DNA of 64,000 bases from a bacterium (GCA_028821265.1 JAPPGU010000002.1:904-64903), one strand, 5' to 3'; positions 1 to 55,366 are shown, counted from the first letter of the stretch. The notes: a model not told the origin generated them from the sequence alone. Numbers and translations are program-made.

Positions 1-2
1 TG

Positions 3-500
3 ATCGCCTTCGCCGGCGGTCCCAATTGCGGCGCGGGCGGCCAGCTCTCTGTCGATCGCCTTACCGGCTTGGTCGAGAACTGCGACGGCTCCGTCTACGA
101 AGCGGGCGGCGCGGCCGGAGGCGTGGACGTGCGGGCGCTGGTCGGCGAGGGGAGCGTGCTGTTCGCGGCCCCCTCCAGCTGCAGCTCGTGCCATGGCGCC
201 AGCGGCGAGGGCGGCTCCGGCCCGGCCTTGGCAGGCACGCTGCTGGACACCTTCGCGGTGTGTACCGACCACATCGAGTGGGTCTCGCTGGGAACGGACG
301 GCTTCCTCAGCGCGGGCCGGAATACCTATGGTGACGCCGGCACCGCGGTGGGCTCGGGCGGGGTCATGCCCTCTTTCGCCGACACCATGACTCCCGAGGA
401 GATCGCCACCGTGGTCTTCTACGAACGGGTGGTGCTGGGAGGCCAGCCCGTCGAGGACGCGGTGTTCGACTGCGGATTCGCAGAACCCGTCGAAGAATGA
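3..500 (+). CDS. c-type cytochrome domain protein, 5' end outside the window
   Basis: The frame is open from the window edge. It has one CSSCH (CxxCH) haem-binding motif and a downstream GGVMPSF segment that could supply the Met ligand. Track ORF 69..500 is the tail of this gene. Confidence 0.7.
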   Translation: MAFAGGPNCGAGGQLSVDRLTGLVENCDGSVYEAGGAAGGVDVRALVGEGSVLFAAPSSCSSCHGASGEGGSGPALAGTLLDTFAVCTDHIEWVSLGTDGFLSAGRNTYGDAGTAVGSGGVMPSFADTMTPEEIATVVFYERVVLGGQPVEDAVFDCGFAEPVEE

Positions 501-589
501 GGTCCGGAACCGCTATCACGTTGCTGATCCTGCTGGCCTTGATCGGCGTGGCCGGGATCGTGTTCGCCGTCCAATTGCTCGGCCTGTAG
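497..589 (+). CDS. candidate 30-aa single-pass hydrophobic micro-protein
   Basis: Its ATG overlaps the cytochrome c stop as ATGA. The product is MRSGTAITLLILLALIGVAGIVFAVQLLGL. It is below the ORF-track size cut-off. Confidence 0.3.
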   Translation: MRSGTAITLLILLALIGVAGIVFAVQLLGL

Positions 590-663
590 AAGAGAGCCAG
601 GGGGCTACGGGTAACCACCTCTGCCAGTAAACTACGCGGCTAGAGGGCTAGGAGCACTCTGCG

Positions 664-879
664 ATGACATCAGCCACCACGACCACCACTTTCCGTGTCG
701 AGGCTTTTCACGAGGGTGAGTGGTGGGTGGCCCGGGTAGCAGGGCTAGACGCCAACTACACCCAGGCCAGGACGTTCGAGGAAGTACGCGAAATGGCGCG
801 AGACCTCATTGCCCTCGCGCTCGACATCGACGAGACCGAGGTAGGCGAGATCGTGGTTACCGAGAACGACTGGCGCTGA
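664..879 (+). CDS. HicB-like (UPF0150) antitoxin-fold protein, no HicA partner seen
   Basis: 71 aa. The FRVEAFHEGEWWVARVAGLD...ARTFEEVREMARDLIAL pattern is typical of the HicB N-terminal domain. Confidence 0.5.
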   Translation: MTSATTTTTFRVEAFHEGEWWVARVAGLDANYTQARTFEEVREMARDLIALALDIDETEVGEIVVTENDWR

Positions 880-919
880 CCTCAGACAACTCCGGCCACG
901 GTTCGGGATCGGGGCTGTT

Positions 920-1318
920 TCAAGGCGTCACCAACTGGATGTCGCACTGCGGACCAGGTGCGCCGGCGAGCGCCCTGTCGTTGGTAAGAAGTGAACATTC
1001 GAGCGTTTCCGCCAGCGCCACGTAGACGGCGTCGTATGGTGTCACGTTGGCTCGCAATTCGAAGATCCGGGGAAGCAACGAAACCATCGAGTACCGTGCG
1101 AGCGGCAAATCGGCGAGGGCCTCTACGGCGTCCGAGAATCGCTCGAGTGTGAGGTCACCGGCCAGCCAGCGCTTCCTGAGGACTGAAACGACTTCGGCGT
1201 AGGCCAGGTCCGGTATGGCGGCGTCGCCGGCAAGACGCAACTCTCGCCGGGCGTCGGCGCCGTCGCCGCCGTCGTCACCGACCGCATTGGCGAGCACGGA
1301 GGCGTCGAGGACGATCAA
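920..1318 (-). CDS. vapC: PIN-domain toxin VapC
   Basis: It starts MIVLDASVL and has the acidic residues and the YDAVYVALAE / LLTND motifs of PIN RNases. Its start overlaps the upstream antitoxin gene by 4 nt. Confidence 0.8.
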   Translation of the reverse strand: MIVLDASVLANAVGDDGGDGADARRELRLAGDAAIPDLAYAEVVSVLRKRWLAGDLTLERFSDAVEALADLPLARYSMVSLLPRIFELRANVTPYDAVYVALAETLECSLLTNDRALAGAPGPQCDIQLVTP

Positions 1319-1545
1319 CGCTGCCGGCGGTCCTCGGCCAGGTCCTCCACTGACTGTCTAGCGCCGACGCGACCACCCGCAAGGGTTTCCACCCTGTTGA
1401 TGACATCGTCGAGCGTGGGGCGCGCCGCGAGCCGCTTCAACTCGGACACGAGATACTGCTGAAGCGATTTGCCCTCACGCTCGGCGCGGTGCCGTAGCTC
1501 GGCATGCGTCTCGTCGGGCAGATTCCGTATCAGCACGTGCACCAT
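1315..1545 (-). CDS. vapB: VapB/FitA-type ribbon-helix-helix antitoxin
   Basis: 76 aa with the N-terminal pattern MVHVLIRNLPDETHAELRHRAEREGKSLQQYL. It is translationally coupled to vapC. Confidence 0.7.
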   Translation of the reverse strand: MVHVLIRNLPDETHAELRHRAEREGKSLQQYLVSELKRLAARPTLDDVINRVETLAGGRVGARQSVEDLAEDRRQR

Positions 1546-1635
1546 GCTTTCATTATGCTATCACAAGTGCGACCCTGACCTCTGTATGGATCTAGCCGGC
1601 CGGTCATCGGCCGGTGGTTCAGTGTAATCCAATAT

Positions 1636-1679
1636 AACTAGCAACTAGCAACTAGCAACTAGCAACTAGCAACTAGCAA
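1636..1679. repeat. heptanucleotide tandem array (AACTAGC) x6 plus a partial unit
   Basis: Six perfect consecutive copies read directly from the sequence. The array contains the last 4 codons and the stop (1666-1668) of the minus-strand gene 1666..2487. It lies about 90 nt upstream of the vapB start. Confidence 0.95.
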
Positions 1680-2487
1680 TAACGACCGACGAGTCCACGG
1701 CGAGCGTGAAGTGGTCGTCGGCCCGCCCGCCCCGCACGGCCAGCGCCATCAGCCCGGCCGAATCGATGTGGAGGAGCGGGCGCCCTTCCCCCACGTCCGC
1801 GAACGTCCCCACCCAGGGCACCCGGTAGTTCATCATGCCCACCCGCACCACGACCTGCTCGCCCGGTCCCATCCCGGCCTCCTCGAGGTCTTCGGGCGTG
1901 ATGTTGGTCTGGACGTTGCCGTAGGTGTCCACCCACCAGGCGCGACCCTCCACCCGTCCTTCGTCCGTCACCTCGGATAGGGGAAGCAGGAGCGGCGTGA
2001 GGATCTGCGGATCTAGCTGTGGCCCTATCTCGTGCGGCCGGGCTTCTCCGGCAGCAAGCACGGCGGCAGCCGGCGCGAACCGGTCCCGGCCCTCGAACGT
2101 GCGGCCCCGTGACGGGAGCATCACGTCCGGGTTCTCGATCGCGTAGGCCTCCGTCACGCCCCCTAGGAATGCCGCCGCCGGGGAGAGGATCCCGTTGTCG
2201 GGACCCACCAGGTAGCCCCAGCCGGTCTCCAGGACCACGGCCTTGCGGTCGCTCCCCACACCGGGATCCACCACCGCCAGCACGACGCCGGCCGGCATGT
2301 ACTGGATGGCCCGCAACAGGGTGAGAGCGCCGGCCCGGATGTCGCCGGGCGGTATCCGGTGGTTCAGGTCGATCACGCGGCACCGGGGCGCCAGCGTGGC
2401 GATCACCCCGTGCACCACCCCGACGAACTCGTCCTCCCGGCCGAAGTCGGATAGGAAGGTGATCGGAAGCGGAAAACTCGGCACCAC
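1666..2487 (-). CDS. SAM hydroxide adenosyltransferase family protein (DUF62, chlorinase/fluorinase-like)
   Basis: N-terminal ITFLSDFGREDEFVGVVHGV and DPGVGSDRKAV motifs and the length (273 aa) fit the family. The start is GTG. Confidence 0.85.
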   Translation of the reverse strand: MVPSFPLPITFLSDFGREDEFVGVVHGVIATLAPRCRVIDLNHRIPPGDIRAGALTLLRAIQYMPAGVVLAVVDPGVGSDRKAVVLETGWGYLVGPDNGILSPAAAFLGGVTEAYAIENPDVMLPSRGRTFEGRDRFAPAAAVLAAGEARPHEIGPQLDPQILTPLLLPLSEVTDEGRVEGRAWWVDTYGNVQTNITPEDLEEAGMGPGEQVVVRVGMMNYRVPWVGTFADVGEGRPLLHIDSAGLMALAVRGGRADDHFTLAVDSSVVIASC

Positions 2488-2504
2488 GCCGGCCCGAGCC
2501 TAGA

Positions 2505-2567
2505 TGGTCAGTGGTCAGTGGTCAGTGGACAGTGGACAGTGGACAGTGGACAGTGGACAGTGGATGT
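2505..2567. repeat. heptanucleotide tandem array (TGGTCAG)x3 (TGGACAG)x5 plus one degenerate unit
   Basis: Read directly from the sequence. It begins 18 nt upstream of the GTG start at 2487 (minus strand), inside a divergent intergenic region. Confidence 0.95.
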
Positions 2568-2731
2568 TTGTCACCGGGTAATAAGACGGAAACCCAACTG
2601 CCTTAAGGGCTACAGCCAACTGGATGACCTGTGGGTCACCGAGCGGCCACTGGCAGCCGACCACTGGCCACTTAATCCCGACCATCTGAACCCGCCCGTG
2701 GGTGGGTCCGGGTGCGGTTTACCATTGCGCC

Positions 2732-3613
2732 ATGGGTGATCCGGCGCTCGGCGACACCGAACTGCTCTCCTCGGCCGAGGGGGTGGTGATGATCATCGGG
2801 GCGCCCGATTCGGGAAAGACGACCCTGGCTCGCAAGCTGGCCGACGCCGCCCTCCAGGACGGACGGACCGTCGCCTACATCGACAGCGACCTGGCTTGTA
2901 CAACCGTCGGCCCGCCTACCTGCGTGGGCCTGAAGTGGCTCCGCTCGCCGGCCGACATGGCCGATCTCACCCAAGCCGACGACCTGCGCTTCGTGGGAAG
3001 CATCAGGCCGGACCGGTTCATCCTCCAGCAGGTGGCCGGTGTCGCTTCGCTGGTGGAGACCGCCCGGACGGAGGCGGACCTGATCGTCATCGACACCAGC
3101 GGAACCGTCTCAGGGGTGGTGGGCCAGCGGCTCAAGTATCACAAGGCGGAGTTGGTCCGGCCCGACACCGTGTGGGCCGTGCAGAGGGGTGGCGAGTTGG
3201 AACCTCTGGTAGGCCTCCTGCGGCGGTTTCTCTCCGCCAACGTGGTCACCGTCGCCGCCAACCGGGGCGGCCTGCCGATGAGTCCCGAGGAGCGAGTGGA
3301 TGTGCGCGCCGCCCGGTTCGCCGCGGCATTCCCGGCGCCGCTCCAGCGCTGGCGCGTCTTGCCCACCGTATTCGCACCCAGCCTCCCGGCGGGCTTCGAC
3401 CTGGTCCGCCTCCACCGGATGATCGTCGGGGTCCACGACCGGCAGGGCCGTTGCCTGTGCCTGGGAATGCTGGAGTACGACGAAGTGCTGCGGGTCATCA
3501 CCTCCGGGAACCAGGGCATGGCCGGACTTCAGATCGGGTCGGTCCGTCTCGACCCCGAGACGTTCCGGACTACCTCGGTCCGCCTCAACGAGCTGATGTT
3601 CGGCCTCGGCTGA
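2732..3613 (+). CDS. Clp1/Grc3-like P-loop protein (putative polynucleotide 5'-hydroxyl kinase)
   Basis: It has a Walker A motif, MIIGAPDSGKTTLARKLA, followed by YIDSDLACTTVGPP and VIDTSG, as in the CLP1_P domain. The ATG at 2732 is preferred over the GTG at 2702. Confidence 0.6.
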   Translation: MGDPALGDTELLSSAEGVVMIIGAPDSGKTTLARKLADAALQDGRTVAYIDSDLACTTVGPPTCVGLKWLRSPADMADLTQADDLRFVGSIRPDRFILQQVAGVASLVETARTEADLIVIDTSGTVSGVVGQRLKYHKAELVRPDTVWAVQRGGELEPLVGLLRRFLSANVVTVAANRGGLPMSPEERVDVRAARFAAAFPAPLQRWRVLPTVFAPSLPAGFDLVRLHRMIVGVHDRQGRCLCLGMLEYDEVLRVITSGNQGMAGLQIGSVRLDPETFRTTSVRLNELMFGLG

Positions 3614-3766
3614 TCGACCCGGGCCGGTGGGATCCGGACACGCGAAAGCCCGAGGAACCTTTACCGAATTCCACCGCACTTCCCCTGACGGATTCGCTCG
3701 GCGCCAGCACCTCGGGCCTTCTGGACTGAACCTTACGGCCTACCGCCTGGCGGATCAAGCCATCTA

Positions 3767-3795
3767 TTGACATCGTGTAACCATTACATTACGTT
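3767..3795 (+). promoter_or_regulatory. sigma70-like promoter TTGACA-17 nt-TACGTT with no downstream plus-strand CDS
   Basis: A consensus -35 (3767-3772), a 17-nt spacer and a TAnnnT -10 (3790-3795) sit in a visibly A/T-richer 320-nt gap. Confidence 0.35.
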
Positions 3796-3933
3796 CTCAT
3801 AAGTGGGCCGATGGGCCTCTCCCAAGGCCTTATCCACACAATCCCCAGGGGTTGCTCACAGGGAGTGTGAACAAGACACTTCCAGAAATTTTCGCGCTCT
3901 CCCACCCCGGATGGTCGTGGCCGGCACGCTGCG

Positions 3934-4356
3934 TCAGCGCCCGAATCCCGTCCTGACCAGGGGACGGAATGTGAGGTCCACCAGCTCGTAGATCTCGGCG
4001 AAGACATACTGGAGAACCTCCTCATCGGCGCGCTCGGCCTCGACCCGGCCCCGCAGGTATATCCCACCACCGTGATCGATGGCGAAGTGGACCCGCCACG
4101 CCCGATGGTTGCGGACCAGCATCAACCGGTAGACCTCCTCCAGTCGCCCGCGAGGCGATGGAAGAACGTACGCCTCGAACCCGACCGTGCGGTCGCCGGG
4201 CTCGACCCATACCGTGGTGAAGTCGCGGGTTTGCTGAGCCATCCGCACCGCCCAGCGGCCTTCCACGAGTTCGGTGGCCACCACGTCCGATCCGGGATCC
4301 TCCACCCATGACCGGAAGATGGCGCCCAGCCGGTCGGTGAGCTCAGCCCGATCCAT
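3934..4356 (-). CDS. YbjN-like domain protein
   Basis: 140 aa from the ATG at 4356 (MDRAELTDRLGAIF...). Its start overlaps the end of the upstream mshA-like gene by 14 nt. As far as I recall, this pairing occurs downstream of mshA in actinobacteria. Confidence 0.55.
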   Translation of the reverse strand: MDRAELTDRLGAIFRSWVEDPGSDVVATELVEGRWAVRMAQQTRDFTTVWVEPGDRTVGFEAYVLPSPRGRLEEVYRLMLVRNHRAWRVHFAIDHGGGIYLRGRVEAERADEEVLQYVFAEIYELVDLTFRPLVRTGFGR

Positions 4357-5578
4357 CGGTGATTCCCCTATAGAGCTCCAAGAGCCGGTCGGTGGCTGCT
4401 TCCCACCCGTAGCGACGACCCGCAGCAAGGGCGCCCCGGATCAGTTCGTCGCGGTAGGCCGCCCCGTCCAGGACCCTCAACAGAGCCTTGGCGTAGTCGG
4501 GCGGCTCCCATCCGTCCACCAGGAACCCGGACACTCCATCCTCGACCACATACCGCAACCCGCCCACATTGGCGGCCACCACCGGCAGGCCCACTCCCTG
4601 CGCTTCCGCCGCCACCAACCCGAAGGATTCGCTCCTCGACGGCACGATGAGCACGTCGGCGGCCTGGTAGTAGAGCGGGAGGCGGTGGTGGGGCTGGACG
4701 CCGCACCAGGTCAGCCTCCGTTCCAGGCCCGAGCGGGCGGCGAGTTGCCGGATCTCGAGCTCTTCCTCGATACCAGAGGGGCCGCTCGGGCCGCCCACGA
4801 CCATCATCCGGGCATCCGGGAGGTGGTCTCGCACCATGCCGAAGGCCGCCACCGCCACGTCCAGTCCCTTGAGCGCCTGGATACGACCTACGAACAGCAC
4901 GGTCGGAGCGTCATCGAGGCCCAGCCGTCTCCTGGCCTCCCGGCGATCGCCCGGCCTGAACAGGGTCAGGTCGATGCCGGGTGGGTTCACGCATACCCGG
5001 CTGGGGTCGGCGCCGTACCGCTCGATCAGCTCCAGCGCCTCGTGCTCGGTGGAGGCGATCACGCAGTCCGACCGGGCGATCACCTCCCGCTCGGCGGCGA
5101 TGCGATACAAGGGTTCGCTCGGCTGGCCGGGACGGCGGGTGGCGTCCTTGACCCGGCCCAACGTGTGGAAGGAGTTGGCGAGCGGGAACCCCGTTACCTG
5201 CTTGACGAGCAGGCCCGTCCAGCCGGACAGCCAGTAATGGCTGTGGAGGATGACGGTCCCCGGCCCGCGGTGGCCGTCATCGAGCACAGCCTCGGTGACC
5301 TGCGTGGCGAACTCCCCCACCCAGTCGCCGAGATGGGGAATCGGTAGCGGCTCCACCGGCCCGGCCTCGACATGGATCACCTCGTAACCGGCAGGAGTGG
5401 CCATCACCCCCGCCCGGCTCGGATCCGTCCGCCGGGTGAACACGGTCACCTCGATACCCCGTCGGGCGAGCGAAGCGGCCTGCTCATCGACATAGACGTT
5501 CATGCCCCCGGCGTCGCCCACGCCGGGACGATCCAGCGGAGACGTGTGCATCGAAAGGAACACCACCTTGCGGATCAT
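4343..5578 (-). CDS. mshA: GT4 glycosyltransferase, D-inositol-3-phosphate glycosyltransferase (MshA) type
   Basis: The N-terminus KVVFLSMHTSPLDRPGVGDAGGMNVYV is the MshA signature, and the C-terminal PSRSESFGLVAAEAQGVGLPVV is the GT4 motif. The true start is the ATG at 5578, which overlaps the stop of the upstream gene as ATGA. Confidence 0.8.
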   Translation of the reverse strand: MIRKVVFLSMHTSPLDRPGVGDAGGMNVYVDEQAASLARRGIEVTVFTRRTDPSRAGVMATPAGYEVIHVEAGPVEPLPIPHLGDWVGEFATQVTEAVLDDGHRGPGTVILHSHYWLSGWTGLLVKQVTGFPLANSFHTLGRVKDATRRPGQPSEPLYRIAAEREVIARSDCVIASTEHEALELIERYGADPSRVCVNPPGIDLTLFRPGDRREARRRLGLDDAPTVLFVGRIQALKGLDVAVAAFGMVRDHLPDARMMVVGGPSGPSGIEEELEIRQLAARSGLERRLTWCGVQPHHRLPLYYQAADVLIVPSRSESFGLVAAEAQGVGLPVVAANVGGLRYVVEDGVSGFLVDGWEPPDYAKALLRVLDGAAYRDELIRGALAAGRRYGWEAATDRLLELYRGITDGSG

Positions 5579-6471
5579 GTGACGCCCTCCACCACAAGCA
5601 GCGGGCGCGCCCGAGCCCCCATGCGGAACTTGTAGGGCTCCGATCCCTTGAGAAAGTCGAACACCGCTCCCCCCGCCGCGATGGTGGCGGCGATCAACTC
5701 CGTGAGGAGCACCACGCCGGGCGACACGTGACGGAGATCGGGCTCGTAGGCGGAGTTGTACAGGTAGTAGCCGTCGGCGTCCGAGTAGCCGATCACGACC
5801 GCTGCCGGGCGGTTGTCGTCCCCGTACAGGACGTCCAGGCGCCAACCCTCCCCGCTCAGGAGCTCCGTGAACATGTCCTCCATCGGGCCGGTCATGAACC
5901 GACCCTTTCGTCCCGCCGAGCGGCGATGGAGCCGGAAGAAGTCGTCCAGCACGGGGCCCGGCTCCTCGAAGGTCGCCAGGCGCAACCCGCCCATCTCCCC
6001 GACGAACCGGCGGCGCTTGCGGCGGGCCTCGTGACGCTGCTTCTTTCCGATGGCGGTCAGGTACTGGTCGAAGGTCTCCGGGAGGTCCACCACGGCGGTC
6101 TCGGCGTGCGGGGCCATGCGATAGTCGGAGCCGACCCGGTCCAGGGCTTCGGTGATGACGTCGGCGGCGCCCGACGGAAGGGAATCGAACCGGAAGGACC
6201 GGCTCCGGCCGGACGCTCGGAAGTGCTCGACCAGCAGGTCGACCGCGTCGCCGAGCGGCGACCGGTAGTCGACCAGGTCCTCGTGTCCCAGAAGCCCGAG
6301 ATGATCACCCTCCTCGACCAGGGCCACCTCCCCCCGTTCGTCCGACAGGATGAGAGGAACCTGGCCGGGCGAGGCGGTATGCCGCCACACGGTGGCGAGG
6401 AAATCGCGGGTGGCGAACGGTCCGACCCGGTCCGCCGCTGCACTATGCCCGTAGGTCCTGGTATCGAACAT
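5575..6471 (-). CDS. GNAT-fold acetyltransferase (CelD/BioF2-like, Acetyltransf_6)
   Basis: The C-terminal half (YYLYNSAYEPDLRHVSPGVVLLTELI...FDFLKGSEPYKFRMGA) is typical of the family. The start is taken at MFDTRTY (6471). Confidence 0.6.
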   Translation of the reverse strand: MFDTRTYGHSAAADRVGPFATRDFLATVWRHTASPGQVPLILSDERGEVALVEEGDHLGLLGHEDLVDYRSPLGDAVDLLVEHFRASGRSRSFRFDSLPSGAADVITEALDRVGSDYRMAPHAETAVVDLPETFDQYLTAIGKKQRHEARRKRRRFVGEMGGLRLATFEEPGPVLDDFFRLHRRSAGRKGRFMTGPMEDMFTELLSGEGWRLDVLYGDDNRPAAVVIGYSDADGYYLYNSAYEPDLRHVSPGVVLLTELIAATIAAGGAVFDFLKGSEPYKFRMGARARPLLVVEGVT

Positions 6472-6523
6472 CACCGGGTACACGGGTCGAGCGTATCGGG
6501 TCGGATGGAGACTCCCGGCGCGC

Positions 6524-7633
6524 TCATAGGCAGGCTCGCACCAGCGTCGGGTAGGGATTGACCGGCGAAGAGGTCCGCCCCCTCGGATGGAGTTGGAAAT
6601 GCAGATGGGGCGGAGTGGTGCGGGCGTTCCCGGTGTTGCCGTTGTAGCCCACCACCTGGCCCCGGCTGACCCGGACCCCCGAGGCGATCCCCGAGGCATA
6701 ACCGTCGAGGTGGGCGTAGTAGTAGTCGACCCCGTGGTCGGCCGCCAGCCATAGAGCGGTACCGCCCCGGCCCCCTTGCGTCAGCAGCACCGTGCCGTTG
6801 CCCACGGCATAGATGGGTTGCCCCCTGGGGGCGAACAGGTCGTTGCCGCGGTGGGTTCGCCCTCCCGACCGCGGGAAACCCCAGTCGTTGATGAAGGAGG
6901 TGGCAGCCGGATCCAGCGGGCAGATGAAACCGGGTGTCAAACCGGGTCCGACCCCGGCCGCCGGACCCGCCCGCCGGGCGGCCTCGAGAGCCCGGGCCCG
7001 CGCCAACTCGGCCTGGCGTTGCCGGTAGAGCCGACTGCATTCTCCCTCCAGTTGCCTCGAGGCGTACAGGGCCTCGTCCGTCGCCGCAGCCAGTATCCCG
7101 GCCTGCTGCTCAGCCCTGATCTCCAGGATGAGCAACTCGGTCTCCTCCTCCACGAGCTGCTGCTCCATGACTTCGGTCTGGGCCAGTATCAGCCGCCACC
7201 GGTCCACCGCCGCCACCCGCTCGGTGGTGATGGCGTTGATGAACTCCTGGCTGGTGACCAACTCGTCGAGCGACTTCGTCCGGAGAACGAGGCCGCTGAT
7301 CTCCGTCTCGGCGGTCATGTAGGACTCCACCGCCCAATCCACCACAGCCTGGCGCAGCACCTCGAGCTCCTCGTAGCGTTCCGCGATCTGGTCCTGGAGC
7401 CGGGCGACCCGGCCGGCTATGACATCCCGGTCCGCATAGAGCCCGGCCACCTCGGCCTGGGCCTCGTTCCGTTCCGCGACCGCGGCGTCCAGGATGTCCA
7501 CCGCGTCCTGGTACTCGCCGCAAGCCTCGTCCACCTCAGCCTGGGTTACCGCCACCGAGGGGGCAGGCGCCACGGCTGCGAGAGCCAATACGGGCGCGAC
7601 CAGGAGCACCACGCGCCGGATGTGTTTGGACAT
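6524..7633 (-). CDS. secreted M23 family metallopeptidase with a coiled-coil N-terminal region
   Basis: It has a signal peptide (VVLLVAPVLALAAVAPAPS), a long heptad-like helical region, and the HRGNDLFAP ... YYAHL ... GNTGNARTTPPHLHFQLH zinc-site motifs. Confidence 0.85.
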   Translation of the reverse strand: MSKHIRRVVLLVAPVLALAAVAPAPSVAVTQAEVDEACGEYQDAVDILDAAVAERNEAQAEVAGLYADRDVIAGRVARLQDQIAERYEELEVLRQAVVDWAVESYMTAETEISGLVLRTKSLDELVTSQEFINAITTERVAAVDRWRLILAQTEVMEQQLVEEETELLILEIRAEQQAGILAAATDEALYASRQLEGECSRLYRQRQAELARARALEAARRAGPAAGVGPGLTPGFICPLDPAATSFINDWGFPRSGGRTHRGNDLFAPRGQPIYAVGNGTVLLTQGGRGGTALWLAADHGVDYYYAHLDGYASGIASGVRVSRGQVVGYNGNTGNARTTPPHLHFQLHPRGRTSSPVNPYPTLVRACL

Positions 7634-7648
7634 GGCATTTAAGGCTAG

Positions 7649-7690
7649 TGGTCGGTGGTCAGTGGTCAGTGGTCAGTGGTCAGTGGTCAG
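7649..7690. repeat. heptanucleotide tandem array (TGGTCGG)x1 (TGGTCAG)x5
   Basis: Read directly from the sequence. It starts 15 nt upstream of the M23 peptidase ATG (7633, minus strand), so it occupies the expected RBS/5'UTR region. Confidence 0.95.
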
Positions 7691-7761
7691 TCACGCCGGT
7701 CCCGCGACCTCATGGAGCCGGTCAAGAACAACTTGGCGTGTTCTGCTCGGGACTGCGGCCC

Positions 7762-8751
7762 TCACCCGATCATCCGCAGCGCGGGCATGAACACCGCCAC
7801 GGCCAGCATCGGACCGTCCAGCGCAGCCAGGAGACCGCCCGGTCTGGACGTCAACCGGATGGCTCCCGTACGGAAAGCCAGGCCGATGCCACGGCCCGCG
7901 ATCGTTGCGAGTGCCAGGAGCAGTCCGATGAAGAACCAGGCGAGGAGATCGAACCCGGAGAGATAAGCGACCGCCACGGCCACCACGACCATCAGAACCG
8001 GGCCGACAAGGTAGGGATCGAACAGGCGTGACCGGCTCACCTCGGTCCACCGGCCGACCAGAGCGCCCACCGCGATCACGATCAGCAACCCGGCAACCTG
8101 CCGGTCCCCGCCGTCGGCGACCGACCTGGCCAGCAGAAGAGACGCCACCGCCAGGGAGGCGATCACCGCGCCCAGCGCCGAAGCGCCGATCGAGGTCAGG
8201 TCCCGGGCTGAAGGCCTCACGACCGCCCATCCCATCACCAGGACCATCGAGACAGCCACGCCGATCCCCAGACCGAGCAGTCCGAGCGTATTGGCGACGG
8301 CCATGGAAACCAGGACGGAGGCCAGGATGGGCTGGGTATGCAACCGGAATTCACTGTCGGATGAGGTGTTGACCAGGTCGACCACCCAGATTGCCACTAC
8401 CCCCACCCAGACGGCCACCACGATCGCTATGTCGAGGGTGTTGGTCACGATCAGCGCCAGCATCATGCCGGCCAGCAACAGCCCGTCCATACCACCGGCG
8501 CTGGTCCCCGCGGCGGTGCCGCCCGAAACCGGAGGAATGACCGCCAGCTCATCATCGTCTCGCACCGGGTCCTCGCTGGACCCTTCGTGCCCGTTCTTCC
8601 AGAGGCGGGCGGTCTGCATGTGCCGCCGGAACTCCGGCCCGAACCGCTCCCCCAGGGCATCGACCACCGCGCCGACGGTGTCGCCCTCGATATCCACCTG
8701 CGAGCTTCCAGCGATCTCGCGCAGGTTCGCGAACAGCCTTACTCGTGCCAT
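7762..8751 (-). CDS. MoaD/ThiS-like beta-grasp domain ending in GG, fused in frame to a polytopic membrane domain
   Basis: The N-terminal 78 aa (MARVRLFANLREIAG...DELAVIPPVSGG) look like MoaD. They continue with no stop into about 250 aa with 7-8 hydrophobic helices. Confidence 0.6.
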   Translation of the reverse strand: MARVRLFANLREIAGSSQVDIEGDTVGAVVDALGERFGPEFRRHMQTARLWKNGHEGSSEDPVRDDDELAVIPPVSGGTAAGTSAGGMDGLLLAGMMLALIVTNTLDIAIVVAVWVGVVAIWVVDLVNTSSDSEFRLHTQPILASVLVSMAVANTLGLLGLGIGVAVSMVLVMGWAVVRPSARDLTSIGASALGAVIASLAVASLLLARSVADGGDRQVAGLLIVIAVGALVGRWTEVSRSRLFDPYLVGPVLMVVVAVAVAYLSGFDLLAWFFIGLLLALATIAGRGIGLAFRTGAIRLTSRPGGLLAALDGPMLAVAVFMPALRMIG

Positions 8752-8798
8752 CGATACTGAGGCTACTCGCAATCGGTGCCGTTAACGCGCCAATCCAG

Positions 8799-10238
8799 CT
8801 ACCAGCCGTCGTGGAGTGGCTGACCCTCGGAGTACCCGGCCGAGGACTGGACCCCGATGACCGCCCGCCGGTGGAACTCGTCGATCGTGCGGGCGCCCGC
8901 GTAGGTGAAGGACGATCTCACCCCGGCGGTGATCCGATCGAGCAGGTCCTCCACGCCGGGGGCCTCCGAGCTGAGATACATGCGGCCCTCGGAGATGCCC
9001 TCCTCGAACATGGTCTTCAGTCCCCGCTGGTAGGCGGTGTCCTTGGCAGTACGCCGCTGGACCGCCTGGCGGGAAGCCATGCCGTAGTTCTCCTTGTAGA
9101 CGTTGCCCTCCACGTCCGACAGGGTGGGAGCGGCCGACTCGTAGGTGCCGGCGAACCACGAACCGACCATGGCCGCCGACGCGCCGGCAGCCAGGGCCAG
9201 GGCCACGTCCCTCGGGTCGCGCACCCCTCCGTCGGCCCACACGTGCCGCCCGCGGGATCGGGCCGCCGCGGCGCACTCCACCACCGCCGAGAACTGGGGA
9301 CGGCCCACGCCGGTCATCATCCGGGTGGTGCACATGGCGCCGGGCCCCACACCGACCTTGACGATGTCGGCGCCGGCATCGATGAGGTCCGTGACGGCTT
9401 GGGCTGTCACCACGTTGCCAGCCACGACCGGACGGTCATCCACCACCGCCCGGACCTCTTTCAACGCCTCGATCATGCGGGCCTGATGACCGTGGGCGGT
9501 ATCGACCACCACCACGTCCACCCCAACGTCCGACAGTCCGGCAGCCTGGGCGCCAGCATCTCCGCTGATCCCGACCGCGGCGGCCACGAGCAACCGGCCC
9601 AGGTGGTCGGTAGCCGGCTCGTACACGGTGGCTCGCAGGGCGCCGGGACGGGTGATGACGCCGACCAGCATCCCCGACTCGTCCACCACCGGAGCCAGGG
9701 GCACCCGGCGTTCGGCCAACTCTTCGAACATGGCCTCGGGATCCAGCCAGGCGGGAAGGACGATCGGTTCGTGCGACATCACCTCCGACAGGTGGGTGAA
9801 CGGGTCAGCGCCCTCCTGGTCACCCTCGGTGAAGATACCCACCGGACGGCCCCTCTCGTCCACCACGATGACCGCCCCGTGGGCCCGCTTGTTGATCAAC
9901 GCCCTCGCCGTGTTGACGTTGTCGTGAGGGGTCAGCGTGATAGCGGTATCCAGCACCGGATCCGCCTTCTTCACGGCGGACACCATATCGGCGATGGCTT
10001 CGATCTCCACGTCCTGGGGGAATACAGCCAAGCCGCCCCGGCGGGCCACCGTCTCGGCCATGCGACGGCCCGAAATCGCCGTCATGTTGGCCACCACCAC
10101 CGGGATGTTGGTACCGACTCCGTCCGGCGGGGTGAGGTCGACATCCATCCGGGATGAGACATCCGAGAAGGAGGGCACGAGAAAGACGTCCGAATAGGTG
10201 AGCTCGCGGTCCACCACCAACCCGTCGATGAGCCTCAT
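8799..10238 (-). CDS. IMP dehydrogenase family protein, GuaB1 type (GMP reductase-like)
   Basis: 479 aa. It has a TIM barrel with an inserted CBS pair, a catalytic-loop region GPGAMCTTRMMTGVGRPQ, and no adjacent guaA. Confidence 0.8.
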   Translation of the reverse strand: MRLIDGLVVDRELTYSDVFLVPSFSDVSSRMDVDLTPPDGVGTNIPVVVANMTAISGRRMAETVARRGGLAVFPQDVEIEAIADMVSAVKKADPVLDTAITLTPHDNVNTARALINKRAHGAVIVVDERGRPVGIFTEGDQEGADPFTHLSEVMSHEPIVLPAWLDPEAMFEELAERRVPLAPVVDESGMLVGVITRPGALRATVYEPATDHLGRLLVAAAVGISGDAGAQAAGLSDVGVDVVVVDTAHGHQARMIEALKEVRAVVDDRPVVAGNVVTAQAVTDLIDAGADIVKVGVGPGAMCTTRMMTGVGRPQFSAVVECAAAARSRGRHVWADGGVRDPRDVALALAAGASAAMVGSWFAGTYESAAPTLSDVEGNVYKENYGMASRQAVQRRTAKDTAYQRGLKTMFEEGISEGRMYLSSEAPGVEDLLDRITAGVRSSFTYAGARTIDEFHRRAVIGVQSSAGYSEGQPLHDGW

Positions 10239-22895: not shown

Positions 22896-24368
22896 CTAAT
22901 CGCTTTGTCTGTCCGTTGGGTGCTGCGAACGGTCCGGGCTCGAGTGTGCGCGGATCGACCGACCGGATCGGCGAGCGCGCATCCACCGCCTGATCCACCA
23001 ATAAAGGGCGCCGATCACAGCCAGGACGGGGATGAAGGGCAGCAGCAGGCCGATCGTCGCCACGACGTAGCCGAGAGCTCGGATCACGCCACGGTAACCG
23101 GTACGGACCGAGTCGACGAAGGACGGCGGTCCCTCATCCTCGTCCACCACCACGAAGGTGATGGCGTCGTTGGTCACCGTGTCCAGCGGGACGCCATCAT
23201 CCGGGACCGGGGTGCCGGAGACCTGGAATCCGACCTCGACGCCACCCCTGGTCGCCGCTCGGCCGGCGAGCCGCCCGTCTCGTATGGCCACGTGCAATAC
23301 GGCGCTGAGCAACTCTCCCGGTTCGATCCTGTCGAAGCTTCCCGCCACCAGTTGGAACGAACGGGGGTCGGTGCGGCCGTCCTGGGGACGTAGCCGGAGG
23401 GCCTCCGAGGACACCTCCACGTCGGTGAGGGCCACCTCGCCGGTGTTCTCCACCTGGAGGCAGAAGTAGGCGTCGTCATCGGGGGACGTCACGAGCACCT
23501 CGTCGCCCAGGCAGGGGTCCTCGTCGGAGTCGGATACCCATGCGTACACGTCGATGCCGGTCTCGGGGACCGGTTCATGGAGCTTGAGGATGGCCATCTC
23601 GATGGTGGCCAGGCTGACCAGATCGGTCAGGGTGCGCAGGCGCCCGCGCAGGGTTTCGAGATCGGTCTCCCTCTGGACGAGCTCCCGCTCGATCAGGGCC
23701 ACGTTCTCGAGGTCGGGAGCCTCCTGCAGCAGGCTTCTCAGGCGCAGGACGCTCGCCTCCGCAGTGGCGATCCGGCTTCTGAAGTCGACGATCCGCTCGG
23801 TCACGTCGTCGGCGGTGATCTGCTTGTCGACCAGTTCGCCCACGCGGGAGAGGCTCTCCAGAACCGGCATGAAGTCAGCAGGCATCACCTTGAAGGTCAG
23901 GCGGGATTCGGGCTCGGGGCTACTGCTGACCTGCTGCCCGAAGACGAATCCCCCCATTCCCTGCACGATGTTGACGGCCTCACGTGAGGCCGCGTCGACA
24001 TCCGACGCCCGCACCGAAATGGTTCCCCGATAGATGATGTCACGCCCGAGGTCGGCCGGTGTCGTCGCAGGCAATCCGGCAGCCGTCGATGACGGAAGTG
24101 AGGATTCCCCGTCTACGGCTTCTTCCATCTCGGCGGAGGCCTCCTTGACCACCGCCATCGCCGCGGTCGTGGTCACCATGACCTCGTCCGAAAGGCTGTC
24201 GGGGGCCATGGTGGCAGCCATCGCCATCTCGGACTCTTCGCCGGAATCCTCCCCGCCGCACGCAGCCACCAACAACAGGGCCAGGACGATGAGGCCGTAG
24301 CGCAGCCGGGCCCACACCCCGCCGGTGCTACGACCCGCCCGCCGGTGACGCTCCCTACCAATCGCCAT
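22896..24368 (-). CDS. DUF4349-like lipoprotein with coiled-coil and a C-terminal membrane helix
   Basis: It has a lipobox LLVAAC, a central VTERIVDFRSRIATAEASVLRLRSLL... segment and a C-terminal hydrophobic helix. The start could be 24368 or 24389. Confidence 0.55.
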   Translation of the reverse strand: MAIGRERHRRAGRSTGGVWARLRYGLIVLALLLVAACGGEDSGEESEMAMAATMAPDSLSDEVMVTTTAAMAVVKEASAEMEEAVDGESSLPSSTAAGLPATTPADLGRDIIYRGTISVRASDVDAASREAVNIVQGMGGFVFGQQVSSSPEPESRLTFKVMPADFMPVLESLSRVGELVDKQITADDVTERIVDFRSRIATAEASVLRLRSLLQEAPDLENVALIERELVQRETDLETLRGRLRTLTDLVSLATIEMAILKLHEPVPETGIDVYAWVSDSDEDPCLGDEVLVTSPDDDAYFCLQVENTGEVALTDVEVSSEALRLRPQDGRTDPRSFQLVAGSFDRIEPGELLSAVLHVAIRDGRLAGRAATRGGVEVGFQVSGTPVPDDGVPLDTVTNDAITFVVVDEDEGPPSFVDSVRTGYRGVIRALGYVVATIGLLLPFIPVLAVIGALYWWIRRWMRARRSGRSIRAHSSPDRSQHPTDRQSD

Positions 24369-24529
24369 GGCAACCACTCTATCCGTCACCTAACGCTATG
24401 CCCGGAACCGGGTTGGCGCCAGGATGCGGCCGGCCGCATATGATCCTGCCCTGAGAAGCCGCCGCTCCCGGCTGCGGTCCCAACCACCGGAGCCGGGCGC
24501 GATTCCCGACGCCCCACAAGGAACAAGAC

Positions 24530-41047: not shown

Positions 41048-42052
41048 ATGCGGGTCCTGGTGTTCGACGGACCCCATCGGTTCCACATCGAGACCCGGCC
41101 GCGCCCGGCTCCCGGGCCCGGCGAAGTCCGGCTCCGGATGGCCCATGTGGGTATCTGCGGATCCGACCTGCACGGCTACACCGGCGAATCGGGACGGCGG
41201 CTTCCCGGCATGATCATGGGTCACGAGGCGAGCGGTTGGGTCGAGGCTCAGGGCCCGGGGGTCGACGGTCCGGAGGTCGGCACGCCGGTCACGTTCAACC
41301 CCAGCCTGCCGTGCGACGGGGCCTGCGGACACGTGCTCGAGAACCACTGCGCGGCCTTGAGGGTGATCGGCGTGACGCCCGACATCCAGGGCGCCTTCGC
41401 CGATGCGATCGTGGTCCCCGCCGCCCGGGTGGTGCCGCTGGGCGAGCTGAGCATGCTGTGGGGCGCGGGCGTGGAGCCCATGGCGGTGGCTCTCCAGGCC
41501 ACCCGCCGGGCGGGTGTCCGGCCCGGCCAGGACGTTCTCGTGGTCGGAGGAGGGATGATCGGCCAGTCCATCGCCCAGACCTGCCGCCTGGAAGGAGCCG
41601 CCTCGGTGAGCGTGTCGGATCCCATGCCCTCCCGCCGGGCGCTGGCCCGGGCCGGAGGCTTCAGGGATCTCGAACCCGGCCAGGTCGATGAGGCCGGCCC
41701 GTTCGATGTCTCCTTCGACGCGGTGGGGATCACCGCCACCGCCTACGCCGCCATCCAGAACATCCCCAAGGCGGCAGTGGCCTGCTTCGTGGGGCTGGGG
41801 CTTCCCAAGGTGAGCATCCCGCTCTTCGACGTGGTGGTCAGCGAGCGGATGGTCGTGGGCAGCTTCTGCTATCCGGACGCCGTGTTCGAGGAGGCCGCCG
41901 GCCACCTCGCCGCCGGGCGGCTGGATCTCGACCTGCTCATCGGGAGCGAGGAGAGCTTCGAGGACACCGCCCGTGCTTTCGAGGACCTGGCCACTGGAGT
42001 TCGTACCGATGCCAAGATCATGATGTCCACAGGCCTCGCCGCTCCCGTCTAG
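41048..42052 (+). CDS. zinc-dependent dehydrogenase (MDR, threonine/sorbitol dehydrogenase-like)
   Basis: GICGSDLH, GHEASG and GGGMIG motifs. The ATG at 41048 is preferred over the GTG at 41036. Confidence 0.8.
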   Translation: MRVLVFDGPHRFHIETRPRPAPGPGEVRLRMAHVGICGSDLHGYTGESGRRLPGMIMGHEASGWVEAQGPGVDGPEVGTPVTFNPSLPCDGACGHVLENHCAALRVIGVTPDIQGAFADAIVVPAARVVPLGELSMLWGAGVEPMAVALQATRRAGVRPGQDVLVVGGGMIGQSIAQTCRLEGAASVSVSDPMPSRRALARAGGFRDLEPGQVDEAGPFDVSFDAVGITATAYAAIQNIPKAAVACFVGLGLPKVSIPLFDVVVSERMVVGSFCYPDAVFEEAAGHLAAGRLDLDLLIGSEESFEDTARAFEDLATGVRTDAKIMMSTGLAAPV

Positions 42053-42060
42053 AGGATTGG

Positions 42061-42137
42061 TGTCAGCGGTCAATGGTCACTAGTCAATGATCTTTAACAG
42101 CAAACTAGCAGTTAGCAAATAGCACCTAGCAACTAAG
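42061..42137. repeat. hybrid degenerate heptamer array: four GGTCAnT-like units then six AACTAGC-like units, all in one 7-nt phase
   Basis: Units read in phase: tgtcagc ggtcaat ggtcact agtcaat gatcttt aacagca aactagc agttagc aaatagc acctagc aactaag. The last unit runs into the AAGGAG RBS of the gene starting at 42149. Confidence 0.85.
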
Positions 42138-50203: not shown

Positions 50204-50782
50204 TTACCGCCGGAGCCCGGCGGCTTCGATCCGGAACGTCTCCGGAGTCCTACCTCCCGCCGATCTGGCCTGGAGCCATTCCGGCACCGCTGTGAAGCTC
50301 ACGAGGACCATCCCGGCCAGCACGCACACGGCGAGGACCAGCGCAACGCGGCCAACCGGTTGATCTGCCGCGTTTCCGACCCAGACCACTGGCGAACCAC
50401 CCCCGCCTGCCGCCAGCGCGCACACGGCTGCGAAGAAGAGGTTGCCGACCACATGTATCCCCGATGGTGGGGAATCCAGTTGCCCGAAGCATCCGCAAGA
50501 GGAGAGACCCCTGTTGAGCGCGAGCAGCGAAACCAGCGCGAACAGCGAGTAGACACCGGCCGCGACGAGCGCCGGCCCCGGCCCGCCGGCCGCAAGCGCG
50601 GCCACTCCGAGTACCAACTCCGCGCCACCGGCCGCACGGGCGAACCACACCCGGGCGGGGAAACCGACGGCTCCCATCAGGTCGGCCGCCGGACGGGGGA
50701 ATGCCAGCTTGGCCACCCCGGCGAAGATGAGCAACAGCGAGCCGGCCGCGTAGAGCGCCATCGTGAGGTCTGGGAAGGTCAT
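50204..50782 (-). CDS. MauE/DoxX-family redox-associated membrane protein
   Basis: Four or five hydrophobic helices and the CGCFG motif. It ends 23 nt upstream of the Cys-rich gene. Confidence 0.65.
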   Translation of the reverse strand: MTFPDLTMALYAAGSLLLIFAGVAKLAFPRPAADLMGAVGFPARVWFARAAGGAELVLGVAALAAGGPGPALVAAGVYSLFALVSLLALNRGLSSCGCFGQLDSPPSGIHVVGNLFFAAVCALAAGGGGSPVVWVGNAADQPVGRVALVLAVCVLAGMVLVSFTAVPEWLQARSAGGRTPETFRIEAAGLRR

Positions 50783-53909: not shown

Positions 53910-54383
53910 ATGCACCGCCTCTCCGCTTACGGGATAGGACTGGACGTGCCGACCGGCTGGGAGGCCGAACTGTCCTTGCAGGACGACGCCGAGAAGATCG
54001 AGATCGACACTGCACCACCCGGCCACGGCCTGGTCGTCCTGCATGCGGCCAACTTCTGGCTGCCGAACGAGCGTGACGACTACGGCTCGGAGGCGCTGGA
54101 GGCCATGGGTCCGGCGGGCGTCTTCATCGCGCTCGTGGAGTTCGATCGCGTCTCGGTCGGGTCCCTGCTGTTCGAGCACCACGGCATCCCGGCCGATCTG
54201 CAACCCGACGACTTCGATCCCAACGCACTCCGGCGGCCCATGCGAGAACAGGCCGGCCTCCAACGATTCTTCCACTCGGCCGGTCGGGCCTTCTGCCTCC
54301 ACGCCGCCATCGGCTCCCACAACAACCGAAGAACGCTGGCCCGCGACGTGAACAGCATCCTCTCAAACCTCACCATCGAATAG
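53910..54383 (+). CDS. hypothetical protein
   Basis: 157-aa ORF starting 5 nt after the preceding gene. No motif recognised. Confidence 0.45.
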   Translation: MHRLSAYGIGLDVPTGWEAELSLQDDAEKIEIDTAPPGHGLVVLHAANFWLPNERDDYGSEALEAMGPAGVFIALVEFDRVSVGSLLFEHHGIPADLQPDDFDPNALRRPMREQAGLQRFFHSAGRAFCLHAAIGSHNNRRTLARDVNSILSNLTIE

Positions 54384-54431
54384 GGACAAAGGCACGTTCC
54401 CACACCGCTCACAGCGGCCGATTTCCACACT

Positions 54432-55028
54432 CTATGAGATGGCCATGTCTCCTTCGGTTCCGGTGACGGTCCAGCCGTCCTCTGCTTTCGTTACCCGATA
54501 GGTGAGCCAGATCCCGCATGTGCCGCCACACCACAAGTTGACCCCGACCGTCGCGCCGGCGCCATCGAACTCGACCGGTGCCAGCGTGACGATCGCGCTT
54601 CCGGGGATGACTGGCATCAGGACCTCCTGTTGGATGAAGTCGCTCCGATTGCTGACAAACGTCACCGGCGAGAGGTCCTCAATGGCCGCCGCGATTGCGC
54701 TGCGCTGCTCGTCGGTGAGAGCGTCACCAGGCGAGCCTTCCGTCATGTAGTCCGCGGCGTCGAACACCACACGGTCTAGGACAAGAACTTCGGTGAACCG
54801 GTAGTCGGGCCCGAACGTGTTGTCGAACTCTACGATCTGCCGTGTCACCGTCGCGTAGATGGCCACCGATGCCTTAGCGCGCTCTTCTTCGGAATATGAG
54901 CCGTCTCCGCAGGCAACTGTGCTCACGACCATCAGCACGCCCATAGCGAGGCCGAGGGATCGCAAGTTTGTGCGCGCCGCACGGCGCCCTTGCGCGTTCG
55001 TCGATTCGCCCCTGCCAGCCCGGAACAT
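54432..55028 (-). CDS. hypothetical lipoprotein
   Basis: Signal peptide with lipobox VSTVAC. No recognisable domain. Confidence 0.55.
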   Translation of the reverse strand: MFRAGRGESTNAQGRRAARTNLRSLGLAMGVLMVVSTVACGDGSYSEEERAKASVAIYATVTRQIVEFDNTFGPDYRFTEVLVLDRVVFDAADYMTEGSPGDALTDEQRSAIAAAIEDLSPVTFVSNRSDFIQQEVLMPVIPGSAIVTLAPVEFDGAGATVGVNLWCGGTCGIWLTYRVTKAEDGWTVTGTEGDMAIS

Positions 55029-55366
55029 GATCTACCTCCCAACGCCCCTCACTGTGTGAGCGCCGTTCACCGCTGTTCGCAACAGCTCGTTCCCTTTAGA
55101 CGCCGGATCGACCGGGTTTGGTTCCACCCCCTGAGCCAATCGTTCGCGGCGGGGCCCAACGGTCATGGTCGCCGCCTAAACGTCTGGTAAGCAGGGCTAT
55201 TCACCGGAACTGGACGGCTGGACGAATACGGTGGTGATCTTCACGAGCGACACGGCGACACGCTGAGCGTCGCATCCGGCCCATTTGCGGATCTTCCCGA
55301 TGAGATCGGACAGCCTGAGGCGCCTCACCGTCGGCTAGTTTGGACGATCGTCAGCGGGGGTTCTGG

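Follow-up and report, generated by a model that had tools for sequence, protein, structure and literature searches.

The two arrays of perfect heptamer repeats that flank a gene for a SAM hydroxide adenosyltransferase (SAM_HAT, or DUF62) in a bacterial scaffold should probably be regarded as intergenic repeats which are generated by slippage and filtered by their consequences for gene expression, rather than as switches of reading frame or promoter spacing. Arrays of this kind are known as STRR, LSSR, or TAACTGA repeats; what is new is the host lineage and an undescribed cassette composed of two arrays. The DNA analysed here, referred to as the window, is a stretch of 64,000 nt (GCA_028821265.1, JAPPGU010000002.1:904-64903). 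The scaffold comes from a sponge metagenome and belongs to an Acidimicrobiia symbiont of the Spongiisociaceae (relatives of Ca. Spongiisocius); the SAM_HAT protein is encoded by a single metagenome scaffold in ENA. Its closest genomes are MAGs of Acidimicrobiia, including Ca. Spongiisocius, at a protein identity of 92-96%, and the sequencing runs which contain the window region are sponge metagenomes.

Heptamer Arrays in the Window

Tandem Repeats Finder (TRF) reports arrays of period 7 at positions 1636-1679 (AACTAGC in 6.3 copies, 100% match) and 2505-2564 (8.6 copies, 98% match), the latter reading (TGGTCAG)3(TGGACAG)5. Both had been recognized as perfect heptamer arrays in a sequence-only reading of the same DNA, and this description is confirmed by the repeat finder, by the sequence itself, and by comparison with shuffles: two-unit matches with at most two mismatches occur 13 times for TGGTCAG (0.69 expected) and seven times for AACTAGC (0.04 expected), and no shuffle gave as high a number. 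Period 7 is the only period between 4 and 12 represented by perfect arrays of more than three copies in the 64-kb window, which contains four heptamer array sites, all of them intergenic. On the strand of the SAM_HAT gene, the arrays read (CCACTGT)5(CCACTGA)3 upstream and (GCTAGTT)6 downstream, and the downstream array opens a dispersed cassette of the form (GCTAGTT)n-TATATTRGATTA-(CACTGAC)n. The following features are present in the window.

1596..1614, minus strand: GC-rich inverted repeat CCGGCCG-ATGAC-CGGCCGG, 3' of the cassette (from the sequence; paired in the MFE and centroid folds)
1615..1624, minus strand: single CACTGAACCA unit, remnant of the second array of the cassette (from the orthologous loci L122 and L132/L279)
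1625..1635, minus strand: AT-rich spacer ATATTGGATTA of the two-array cassette (conserved in Spongiisociaceae MAGs)
1636..1631, minus strand: -10-like TATATT, lying in the spacer ATATTGGATTA together with base 1636 (from the sequence)
1636..1679, minus strand: perfect (GCTAGTT)x6.3 array, encoding the final three codons (A-S-C) and the TAG of SAM_HAT (TRF, sequence)
1666-2487, minus strand: SAM hydroxide adenosyltransferase gene (SAM_HAT / DUF62), 273 aa (ORF and Pfam)
2497..2502, minus strand: TAGGCT, a -10-like hexamer of the type TAnnnT, 9 nt 5' of the SAM_HAT GTG (kept in relatives)
2505..2564, minus strand: (CCACTGT)5(CCACTGA)3 array, on the sense strand of SAM_HAT (TRF)
2645..2672, plus strand: degenerate inverted arm GGCCACT GGCAGCC GACCACT GGCCACT of the CCACTGR type (from the sequence)
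7647..7691, minus strand: (CTGACCA)x6.4 array of the TGGTCAG type, 5' of a gene for a secreted M23 peptidase (TRF, Pfam)
42068..42134, plus strand: decayed two-array site, (GGTCAAT-like)x3 - spacer - (AGCAACT-like)x5 (TRF)

The SAM_HAT ORF matches both expected Pfam domains (SAM_HAT_N, 4e-46; SAM_HAT_C, 1.4e-17), which stop at residue 268 of 273, so that the array-encoded tail lies outside of the domains. The earlier observation that the 3' array overlaps the final codons and the stop of the gene is borne out, as the TAG (1666-1668) is located inside the second GCTAGTT unit. As RNA, the array is predicted to form an imperfect CUAG/CUAG hairpin (-19.4 kcal/mol for six units) which is followed by UUAUAUU, and the inverted repeat at 1596..1614 is a possible additional terminator stem. 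The minus strand also contains a promoter-like TTGCTA-16-TATATT, located at 1658..1631.

The two start-proximal arrays are in sense orientation and end 17 nt from the GTG start of SAM_HAT (2485-2487) and 13 nt from the start of the M23 peptidase gene; neither has a Shine-Dalgarno motif. The array of the peptidase gene adjoins a -10-like TAGCCT (7647..7642), which precedes the ATG (7633) by 8 nt. The degenerate arm at 2645..2672 is in sense orientation for a divergent CLP1_P-like gene with a likely ATG start at 2732 and TACCAT before this start. The decayed site at 42068..42134 is situated between a stop codon (42051-42053) and an AAGGAG motif with a GTG start, and carries both unit types; it was missed in the sequence-only reading, as was the array at 7647-7691. 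A search of positions 1-9000 with the Rfam 15 covariance models yielded no family at the arrays and one sub-threshold match elsewhere in this range. That a single gene is bracketed by two arrays is a coincidence. Each array is part of an intergenic region of its own, and each of these regions conforms to a general rule.

Turnover of the Arrays between Related Genomes

A comparison of the orthologous loci shows that GCTAGTT is present after SAM_HAT in six copies in the window, four in L132, three in L122, and four degenerate ones in L126, and in none in L123, L124, L128, L130, and L311, where the protein end differs. In all array-bearing relatives with 3, 4, or 6 units, SAM_HAT ends with -SC*. 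The second array (CACTGMC, 4-7 units) amounts to seven or four copies in relatives and to one in the window: L122 and L132 show the first array, then the spacer, then the second array, and the window retains a single unit of the latter. The 5' array at 2505..2564 is present in the window only and absent at every orthologous locus examined, and relatives carry one of the arrays, the other, or neither. At the M23 peptidase site, the six copies of the window are matched in L310 by a single GACCACT seed without any array, and in L311 by a different array (AACTAnC) within an insert of 249 nt; L124 likewise contains a single-copy seed, ACTGACC, at an empty site. The block-structured variants and these single-copy seeds at empty sites fit an expansion in place. 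As judged from these loci, which come from different species, the arrays appear to gain and lose copies quickly between species. The alternative initially considered, that the arrays might be invariant, rare, and randomly placed, does not apply, because they vary in copy number between related genomes and turn out to be frequent and non-randomly sited.

Distribution, Orientation, and RNA Folding

The heptamers of the window belong to a much wider class. The sequences (TGGTCAG)3 and (GCTAGTT)3 were each found in at least 119 stretches, the matches listed including Acidobacteriota, Planctomycetota, Chloroflexota, Cyanobacteria, Bacteroidota, and Gammaproteobacteria as well as Spongiisociaceae. 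At the loci among the matches listed, which were chosen for carrying the two units and were analysed with home-made gene calls, period 7 is represented by 313 and 244 arrays, compared to 4-18 for periods 6, 8, and 9, and at least 165 other distinct heptamer units occur. The IMG/VR viral contigs contain (TGGTCAG)3 in 68 stretches, (TAACTGA)3 in 106, and (GCTAGTT)3 in six, compared to two stretches for each of two composition-matched scrambles, indicating that the heptamer units are not arbitrary and that units of the ACTGA type are favoured. This preference goes beyond slippage alone and hints at a sequence-specific factor. A motif common to all units was also considered, and the enrichment of CTGA, CACT, and ACTG was only two- to threefold over the at least 165 units, leading us to reject a single binding motif for all arrays.

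The orientation of the arrays is non-random: near start codons, the sense strand carries the G-poor version that lacks structure (CCACTGA, AACTAGC), and the hairpin-forming strand GCUAGUU tends to be located 3' of stop codons. Polarity was determined by a symmetric test, in which an ATG was counted if it lay no more than 25 nt from one of the two array ends and opened an ORF of 100 codons or longer. At the genome loci among the matches listed, CCACTGA-sense arrays had a start at their 3' end in 27 cases and at the other end in three, and AACTAGC-sense arrays gave 23 starts at the favoured end vs. five. CCACTGA-sense arrays of the viral contigs show the same polarity (19 vs. 4), with the array edge 0-24 nt from the ATG. 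For the other units next to starts, again at the loci among the matches listed, ACT is on the sense strand in 29 cases vs. 3, and ATG or GTG in 7 vs. 21. On the stop side, different methods gave different results for CCACTGA arrays (43 vs. 5 with the crude gene calls but 22 vs. 21 in the symmetric ORF test), and no polarity is claimed there.

This start-codon polarity is matched by an asymmetry in the predicted folding of the two strands, which is due to G-U pairing. The values are -28.0 kcal/mol for (GCUAGUU)8 vs. -11.7 for its complement (AACUAGC)8, and -18.5 kcal/mol for (UGGUCAG)8 vs. -2.5 for (CCACUGA)8, which is essentially unstructured. The other units at the loci among the matches listed follow the same trend: 5' of starts, the sense strand is more often the one with less structure (37 vs. 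16, p = 0.002), and 3' of stops it is more often the one with more structure (62 vs. 30, p = 0.0007).

Some of these features would also be expected if the arrays served as multimeric sites for a sequence-specific nucleic-acid-binding protein, either an RNA-binding translation factor or a DNA-binding protein which reads heptads. The ribbon-helix-helix (RHH) omega protein of pSM19035 is a known example of a protein binding to 7-bp heptads. This explanation draws on the excess of ACTGA-type units over the scrambles (68 and 106 stretches vs. 2 per scramble), on the common ACT core of the sense strands (29 vs. 3 among the matches listed), and on the strict polarity toward start codons at a spacing of 0-24 nt without a Shine-Dalgarno motif, which extends to phage contigs; moreover, an RNA-binding translation factor has been hypothesized by MacGregor for the TAACTGA repeats (PMC4679880). 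However, the at least 165 units coexist in the same genomes, and no single binder would read all of them. No candidate protein was found, and the asymmetry in RNA folding explains the polarity as well. An RHH antitoxin gene does occur in the neighbourhood, but it is missing from relatives that retain the arrays. We regard a role as protein-binding sites as rather unlikely. A link of the arrays to the neighbouring RHH-PIN toxin-antitoxin pair as such was discarded, given that relatives retain arrays without the pair.

Promoter Geometry of the SAM_HAT Gene

The distance between TAGGCT and the GTG codon of SAM_HAT is kept in L124, L126, L127, and L128 (and with TATTCT in L122), although the flanks diverge; in L124, the entire divergent intergenic region measures only about 45 nt. 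The layout TAGCCT-8 nt-ATG of the M23 peptidase gene is likewise conserved in L310 and L311, and a TAnnnT hexamer 5-10 nt before the candidate start is found for 7 of 51 window genes vs. 1 of 49 controls. The placement of the -10-like hexamers suggests that the SAM_HAT and M23 peptidase promoters are of a leaderless type, giving rise to leaderless or nearly leaderless mRNAs. The 5' array would then occupy about -13 to -70 of the SAM_HAT promoter region. It would also lie outside of the mRNA if the latter is indeed leaderless, in which case selection at the RNA level cannot explain its orientation there. The hexamer CTGACC recurs every 7 nt in the array, and because it is part of the repeat unit, a -35-like CTGACC is found at a constant distance from the -10 element (17 nt for SAM_HAT, 16 nt for the M23 peptidase gene) as long as the array has at least three copies. 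The copy number of the 5' array may have a graded effect on promoter strength.

These arrangements bear on the proposal, made when the arrays were first noticed, that slippage by 7 nt would shift the spacing between promoter and start or, at the 3' end, alter the reading frame and C-terminus. Since the 5' array is located upstream of the conserved TAnnnT hexamer 9 nt before the GTG, changes in copy number leave the spacing from -10 to start intact, and since the stop codon is part of repeat unit 2, they leave the frame and the C-terminus of SAM_HAT intact as well, relatives with 3, 4, and 6 units all ending with -SC*. From the available sequences we conclude that neither array is a frameshift or spacing switch for SAM_HAT, and neither part of the proposal is supported. 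A contingency switch, in which phase variation by 7-nt slippage would turn SAM_HAT on and off or change its C-terminus, thus appears improbable, even though perfect arrays are prone to slippage, the copy number differs among relatives, and promoter-proximal 7-bp repeats are reported to modulate expression in Haemophilus influenzae (PMC12721329). The protein is identical for every array with at least two units, the -10 element is fixed relative to the start with a -35-like hexamer available every 7 nt, and arrays also flank housekeeping genes, such as those for an acetyl-CoA-synthetase-like protein, efp, and a response regulator.

A Dispersed Two-Array Cassette

The junction TAGTT..TATATTRGATTA..CTG of the cassette was detected by a pattern scan in seven Acidimicrobiia contigs against a background of 67% G+C; as the pattern produces many chance matches in AT-rich genomes, these seven matches alone were used. 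They represent four distinct loci in Spongiisociaceae MAGs, which are located as follows.

Cassette locus 3' of SAM_HAT
Cassette locus 3' of an acetyl-CoA-synthetase-like gene, with at least 8, 2, or 6 copies of the second array in three MAGs
Cassette locus 3' of a third gene
Cassette locus 3' of a response regulator gene and 5' of efp

In all four cases, the preceding gene's stop codon marks the beginning of the cassette, the stop being the TAG of unit 1 or 2, and their spacer of 12 nt is near-identical at these unrelated loci. In k-mer contigs from four sponge metagenomes, the depth over positions 1628-1668 amounts to 40-200 times that of the flanks, and the contigs covering these positions show many different flanks, AT-rich on one side and GC-rich on the other. 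This spike is consistent with a large number of such sites in each genome, or with their presence in other members of the community. The cassette would most likely serve as a hairpin at the transcript end, possibly joined to a promoter and leader. The promoter part of this reading fits cassette loci A, C, and D but not locus B, where the spacing between -35 and -10 is 13 or 20 nt instead of 16-18 nt. Compared with shuffles, folding in the window is more stable for the 3' region (z = -2.64) and less stable for the region of the 5' array (z = +2.05); the fold z-scores of the cassette in relatives did not reach significance. The stem formed by (GCUAGUU)6 is interrupted, and a strict consensus terminator scan of positions 1200-3000 made no call. 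For STRRs, we know of no report of two arrays joined into a fixed cassette by a conserved spacer.

A near-identical spacer at four unrelated loci may be taken as a sign of transposition, that is, of a small MITE-like mobile element which inserts at CTAG and has spread the cassette. The 249-nt insert of L311 is flanked by CTAG, contains inverted (TAGTTGC)3 and (AACTAnC)5 arrays, and occupies the exact site of the third array of the window; furthermore, inverted array pairs about 100 nt apart are seen in other phyla at the loci among the matches listed. Nevertheless, apart from its arrays, the interior of the L311 insert matches no other sequence compared, neither a transposase nor terminal inverted repeats besides the arrays were found, and the single-copy seeds at the empty sites of L310 and L124 fit in-place expansion, leaving a mobile element with little probability. 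An artefact of short-read metagenome assembly is very unlikely, as judged from independent assemblies of different samples which share unit types at the same sites: repeat k-mers do collapse in de Bruijn graphs, and contigs of related MAGs end within arrays (L155, L253), but the arrays of 44 and 60 nt are below the usual read length, and contigs of four sponge metagenomes hold the array with many different flanks.

Proposed Origin and Filtering of the Arrays

The observations are best accommodated by slippage-made, expression-filtered intergenic repeats. In this scheme, single-copy seeds would expand and contract in place by slipped-strand mispairing, which would generate block structures like (TGGTCAG)3(TGGACAG)5 and the rapid gain and loss between species. 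Selection at the level of expression would then filter the position and orientation of the arrays; the pattern itself is observed, and its cause is what we infer. Near a start, the preferred sense strand would be G-poor, free of start codons, and unstructured (CCACUGA, AACUAGC), and after a stop it would tend to be rich in G+U and hairpin-forming (GCUAGUU). For SAM_HAT, the 3' array terminates the ORF by its own TAG and can fold into a hairpin (about -19 kcal/mol) with UUAUAUU behind it, and the 5' array may provide a -35-like CTGACC 17 nt from the -10 element, whatever its copy number. Taken together, this suggests that slippage makes the arrays and that selection at the transcript level may decide which orientation survives at which place.

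A more far-reaching version is possible but tentative, and we consider it less than likely. Rather than junk microsatellites, heptamer arrays might represent a cross-phylum, orientation-selected "punctuation" of gene expression that is used by phages as well, with unstructured ACTGA-type arrays acting as Shine-Dalgarno-independent leaders or -35 ladders immediately 5' of start codons, G+U-rich arrays as tunable hairpins after stop codons, and the Spongiisociaceae cassette as a combined terminator, promoter, and leader. If this were true, slippage would tune the strength of hairpins or the length of leaders, and the flanking genes would stay intact.

Relation to Known Repeat Classes

Since 1990, tandem heptamer repeats in scattered bacterial genomes have resisted explanation. 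The arrays of the window resemble the STRRs of the cyanobacteria Calothrix and Nostoc in consisting of tandem 7-nt units in many dispersed intergenic copies, with several units per genome and hypervariable copy numbers. The earlier statement that they are STRR-like and explained neither by coding nor by simple terminators still stands. We take the STRR units to be CCCCAGT, TTGGTCA, and CAACAGT; the rotation GTGGTCA of the window unit then differs by one base from TTGGTCA (STRR2), and the window units TGGTCAG/TGGACAG and AACTAGC match none of the three. In contrast to the STRRs, the host of the window arrays is a high-GC sponge symbiont of the Acidimicrobiia and no cyanobacterium, and the units are CCACTGA/CCACTGT and GCTAGTT. 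The STRR class is cited in PMC4692102.

The length of the arrays beyond chance, the dominance of period 7, the intergenic location, and the copy variation among relatives are also the traits of LSSRs (Mrazek, 2007). Long SSRs with units of 5-11 nt, among which heptamers are over-represented in intergenic DNA, were reported by Mrazek et al. (2007), as summarised in PMC4679880. According to the same summary, heptamer-dominated long repeats had already been reported for Actinobacteria; the sequence-only reading was not aware of descriptions from high-GC actinobacteria. The GGGAATC repeats of Xanthomonas vary extensively in length and sequence between close relatives at corresponding intergenic sites and occur in inverted arrangements, and polymerase slippage has been proposed for them (Rehm, 2015; PMC4692102). 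The window arrays share with the Mrazek SSRs and the GGGAATC repeats that they are intergenic heptamers, variable between relatives, and found in inverted arrangements; unlike GGGAATC, their units do not form G-quadruplexes and are strongly biased in their orientation to starts and stops.

Direct TAACTGA repeats which obey a rule of forward orientation, directly 5' of a start codon and with no Shine-Dalgarno motif, are known from marine Beggiatoaceae, Cyanobacteria, and Bacteroidetes (MacGregor, 2015; PMC4679880). The start-proximal forward polarity found here for the CCACTGA and AACTAGC arrays is comparable. However, the window unit is CCACTGA/CCACTGT, sharing ACTGA or ACTG, a -10-like hexamer is present between array and start, so that the array is probably located upstream of the promoter and not in a leader, and the window contains a second unit type which is tied to stop codons.

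The hmw genes of H. influenzae are preceded by phase-variable 7-bp repeats. The window has perfect short tandem repeats by a promoter and a gene end in common with phase-variable SSR loci, but changes in copy number are neutral for the frame and the distance from -10 to start, and the array-flanked genes are housekeeping genes. REP/BIME elements are also dispersed, intergenic, located at gene 3' ends, and hairpin-forming, whereas the window arrays are tandem heptamers without a fixed palindrome or evidence of a REP-associated transposase.

The locus adds the abundant Acidimicrobiia symbionts of sponges as a new lineage with heptamer arrays, together with several regularities: a strong preference for ACTGA-type units over scrambles, in phages too, a strict polarity toward start codons, and an asymmetry of G-U folding which predicts the strand that lies before a start and the one that lies behind a stop. 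If these regularities hold, the arrays offer a tractable case of a mutationally unstable sequence being shaped by selection into elements of gene boundaries. On a practical level, the arrays account for the breaks between contigs and the variability of gene ends in Spongiisociaceae MAGs, and annotators should be aware that C-termini such as -ASC* are encoded by the repeat.

Insertions and length variation next to the heptamer arrays

Beyond the two-array cassette, which follows the stop codon of the SAM hydroxide adenosyltransferase (SAM_HAT) gene, the gene content differs between the window and some of the orthologous loci of related genomes. The window carries the following genes there:

920-1545, minus strand, pair of FitA-like RHH antitoxin and PIN toxin genes, immediately past the cassette
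664-879, plus strand, ORF of 71 aa, HicB-type antitoxin-like, adjoining the PIN gene

As judged from the locus comparison, the window, L122 and L126 have the RHH-PIN pair immediately beyond the cassette; it is missing from L132/L279, L124, L128 and L311, which contain a convergent membrane-protein gene in its place. Since the left junction of the pair coincides with the end of the CACTGAC array, this array may represent an insertion hot spot. The PIN/HicB-like end of the window seems to be rich in toxin-antitoxin genes. On the other side of SAM_HAT, the divergent intergenic region shared with the CLP1_P-like gene (window 2488-2734, compared with L124, L126, L127 and L128) varies from ~45 to ~245 nt among these close relatives and is a hot spot for array growth and insertions. 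In L311, a further insertion of 249 nt (6743-6991) separates the seed GACCACTAG from the -10 element of the M23 peptidase gene; it is flanked by CTAG on both sides and contains inverted (TAGTTGC)3 and (AACTAnC)5 arrays, while its interior is without match among the other loci compared.

Arrays in viral contigs and Pyrinomonadaceae

Five to six separate (TGGTCAG)n arrays per contig are found in the 10-kb IMG/VR contig L392 and in IMGVR_UViG_3300044824_000335, mostly occupying the gaps between tandem genes and reaching the ATG. Several Pyrinomonadaceae loci (L001, L060, L087 and L106) share a sequence of ~35 nt, cTTGACAtctcaatcataaatcacatgcttcactga, located 5' of their (CCACTGA)n arrays, and the two elements may constitute a promoter-plus-array module common to Pyrinomonadaceae.

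-10-like hexamers close to start codons

TAG(C/G)CT or another TAnnnT hexamer occurs 6-9 nt 5' of the start codon in 7 of the 51 window genes, compared to 1 of 49 controls. Examples are:

2497-2502
7642-7647
upstream of genes 7762-8772, 50204-50782, 22896-24389 and 59596-60849

This recurrence suggests that leaderless mRNAs are numerous in this organism, their -10 element containing CTAG.

Composition and further repeats at 54-62 kb

The G+C content amounts to 0.61-0.63 over 54000-62000, compared to ~0.67 in the rest of the window; this segment may be an acquired island. A repeat with a period of 16 nt (2.8 copies of ACCCACCAAACGCGAC) is located at 57112-57153, in surroundings with strongly negative GC skew and reduced G+C. 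Another repeat, with a period of 23 nt (3.4 copies of approximately GAACACTGCTGTGCTATCGACCT, 59505-59583), immediately precedes the gene starting at 59596 and looks like operator or iteron repeats.
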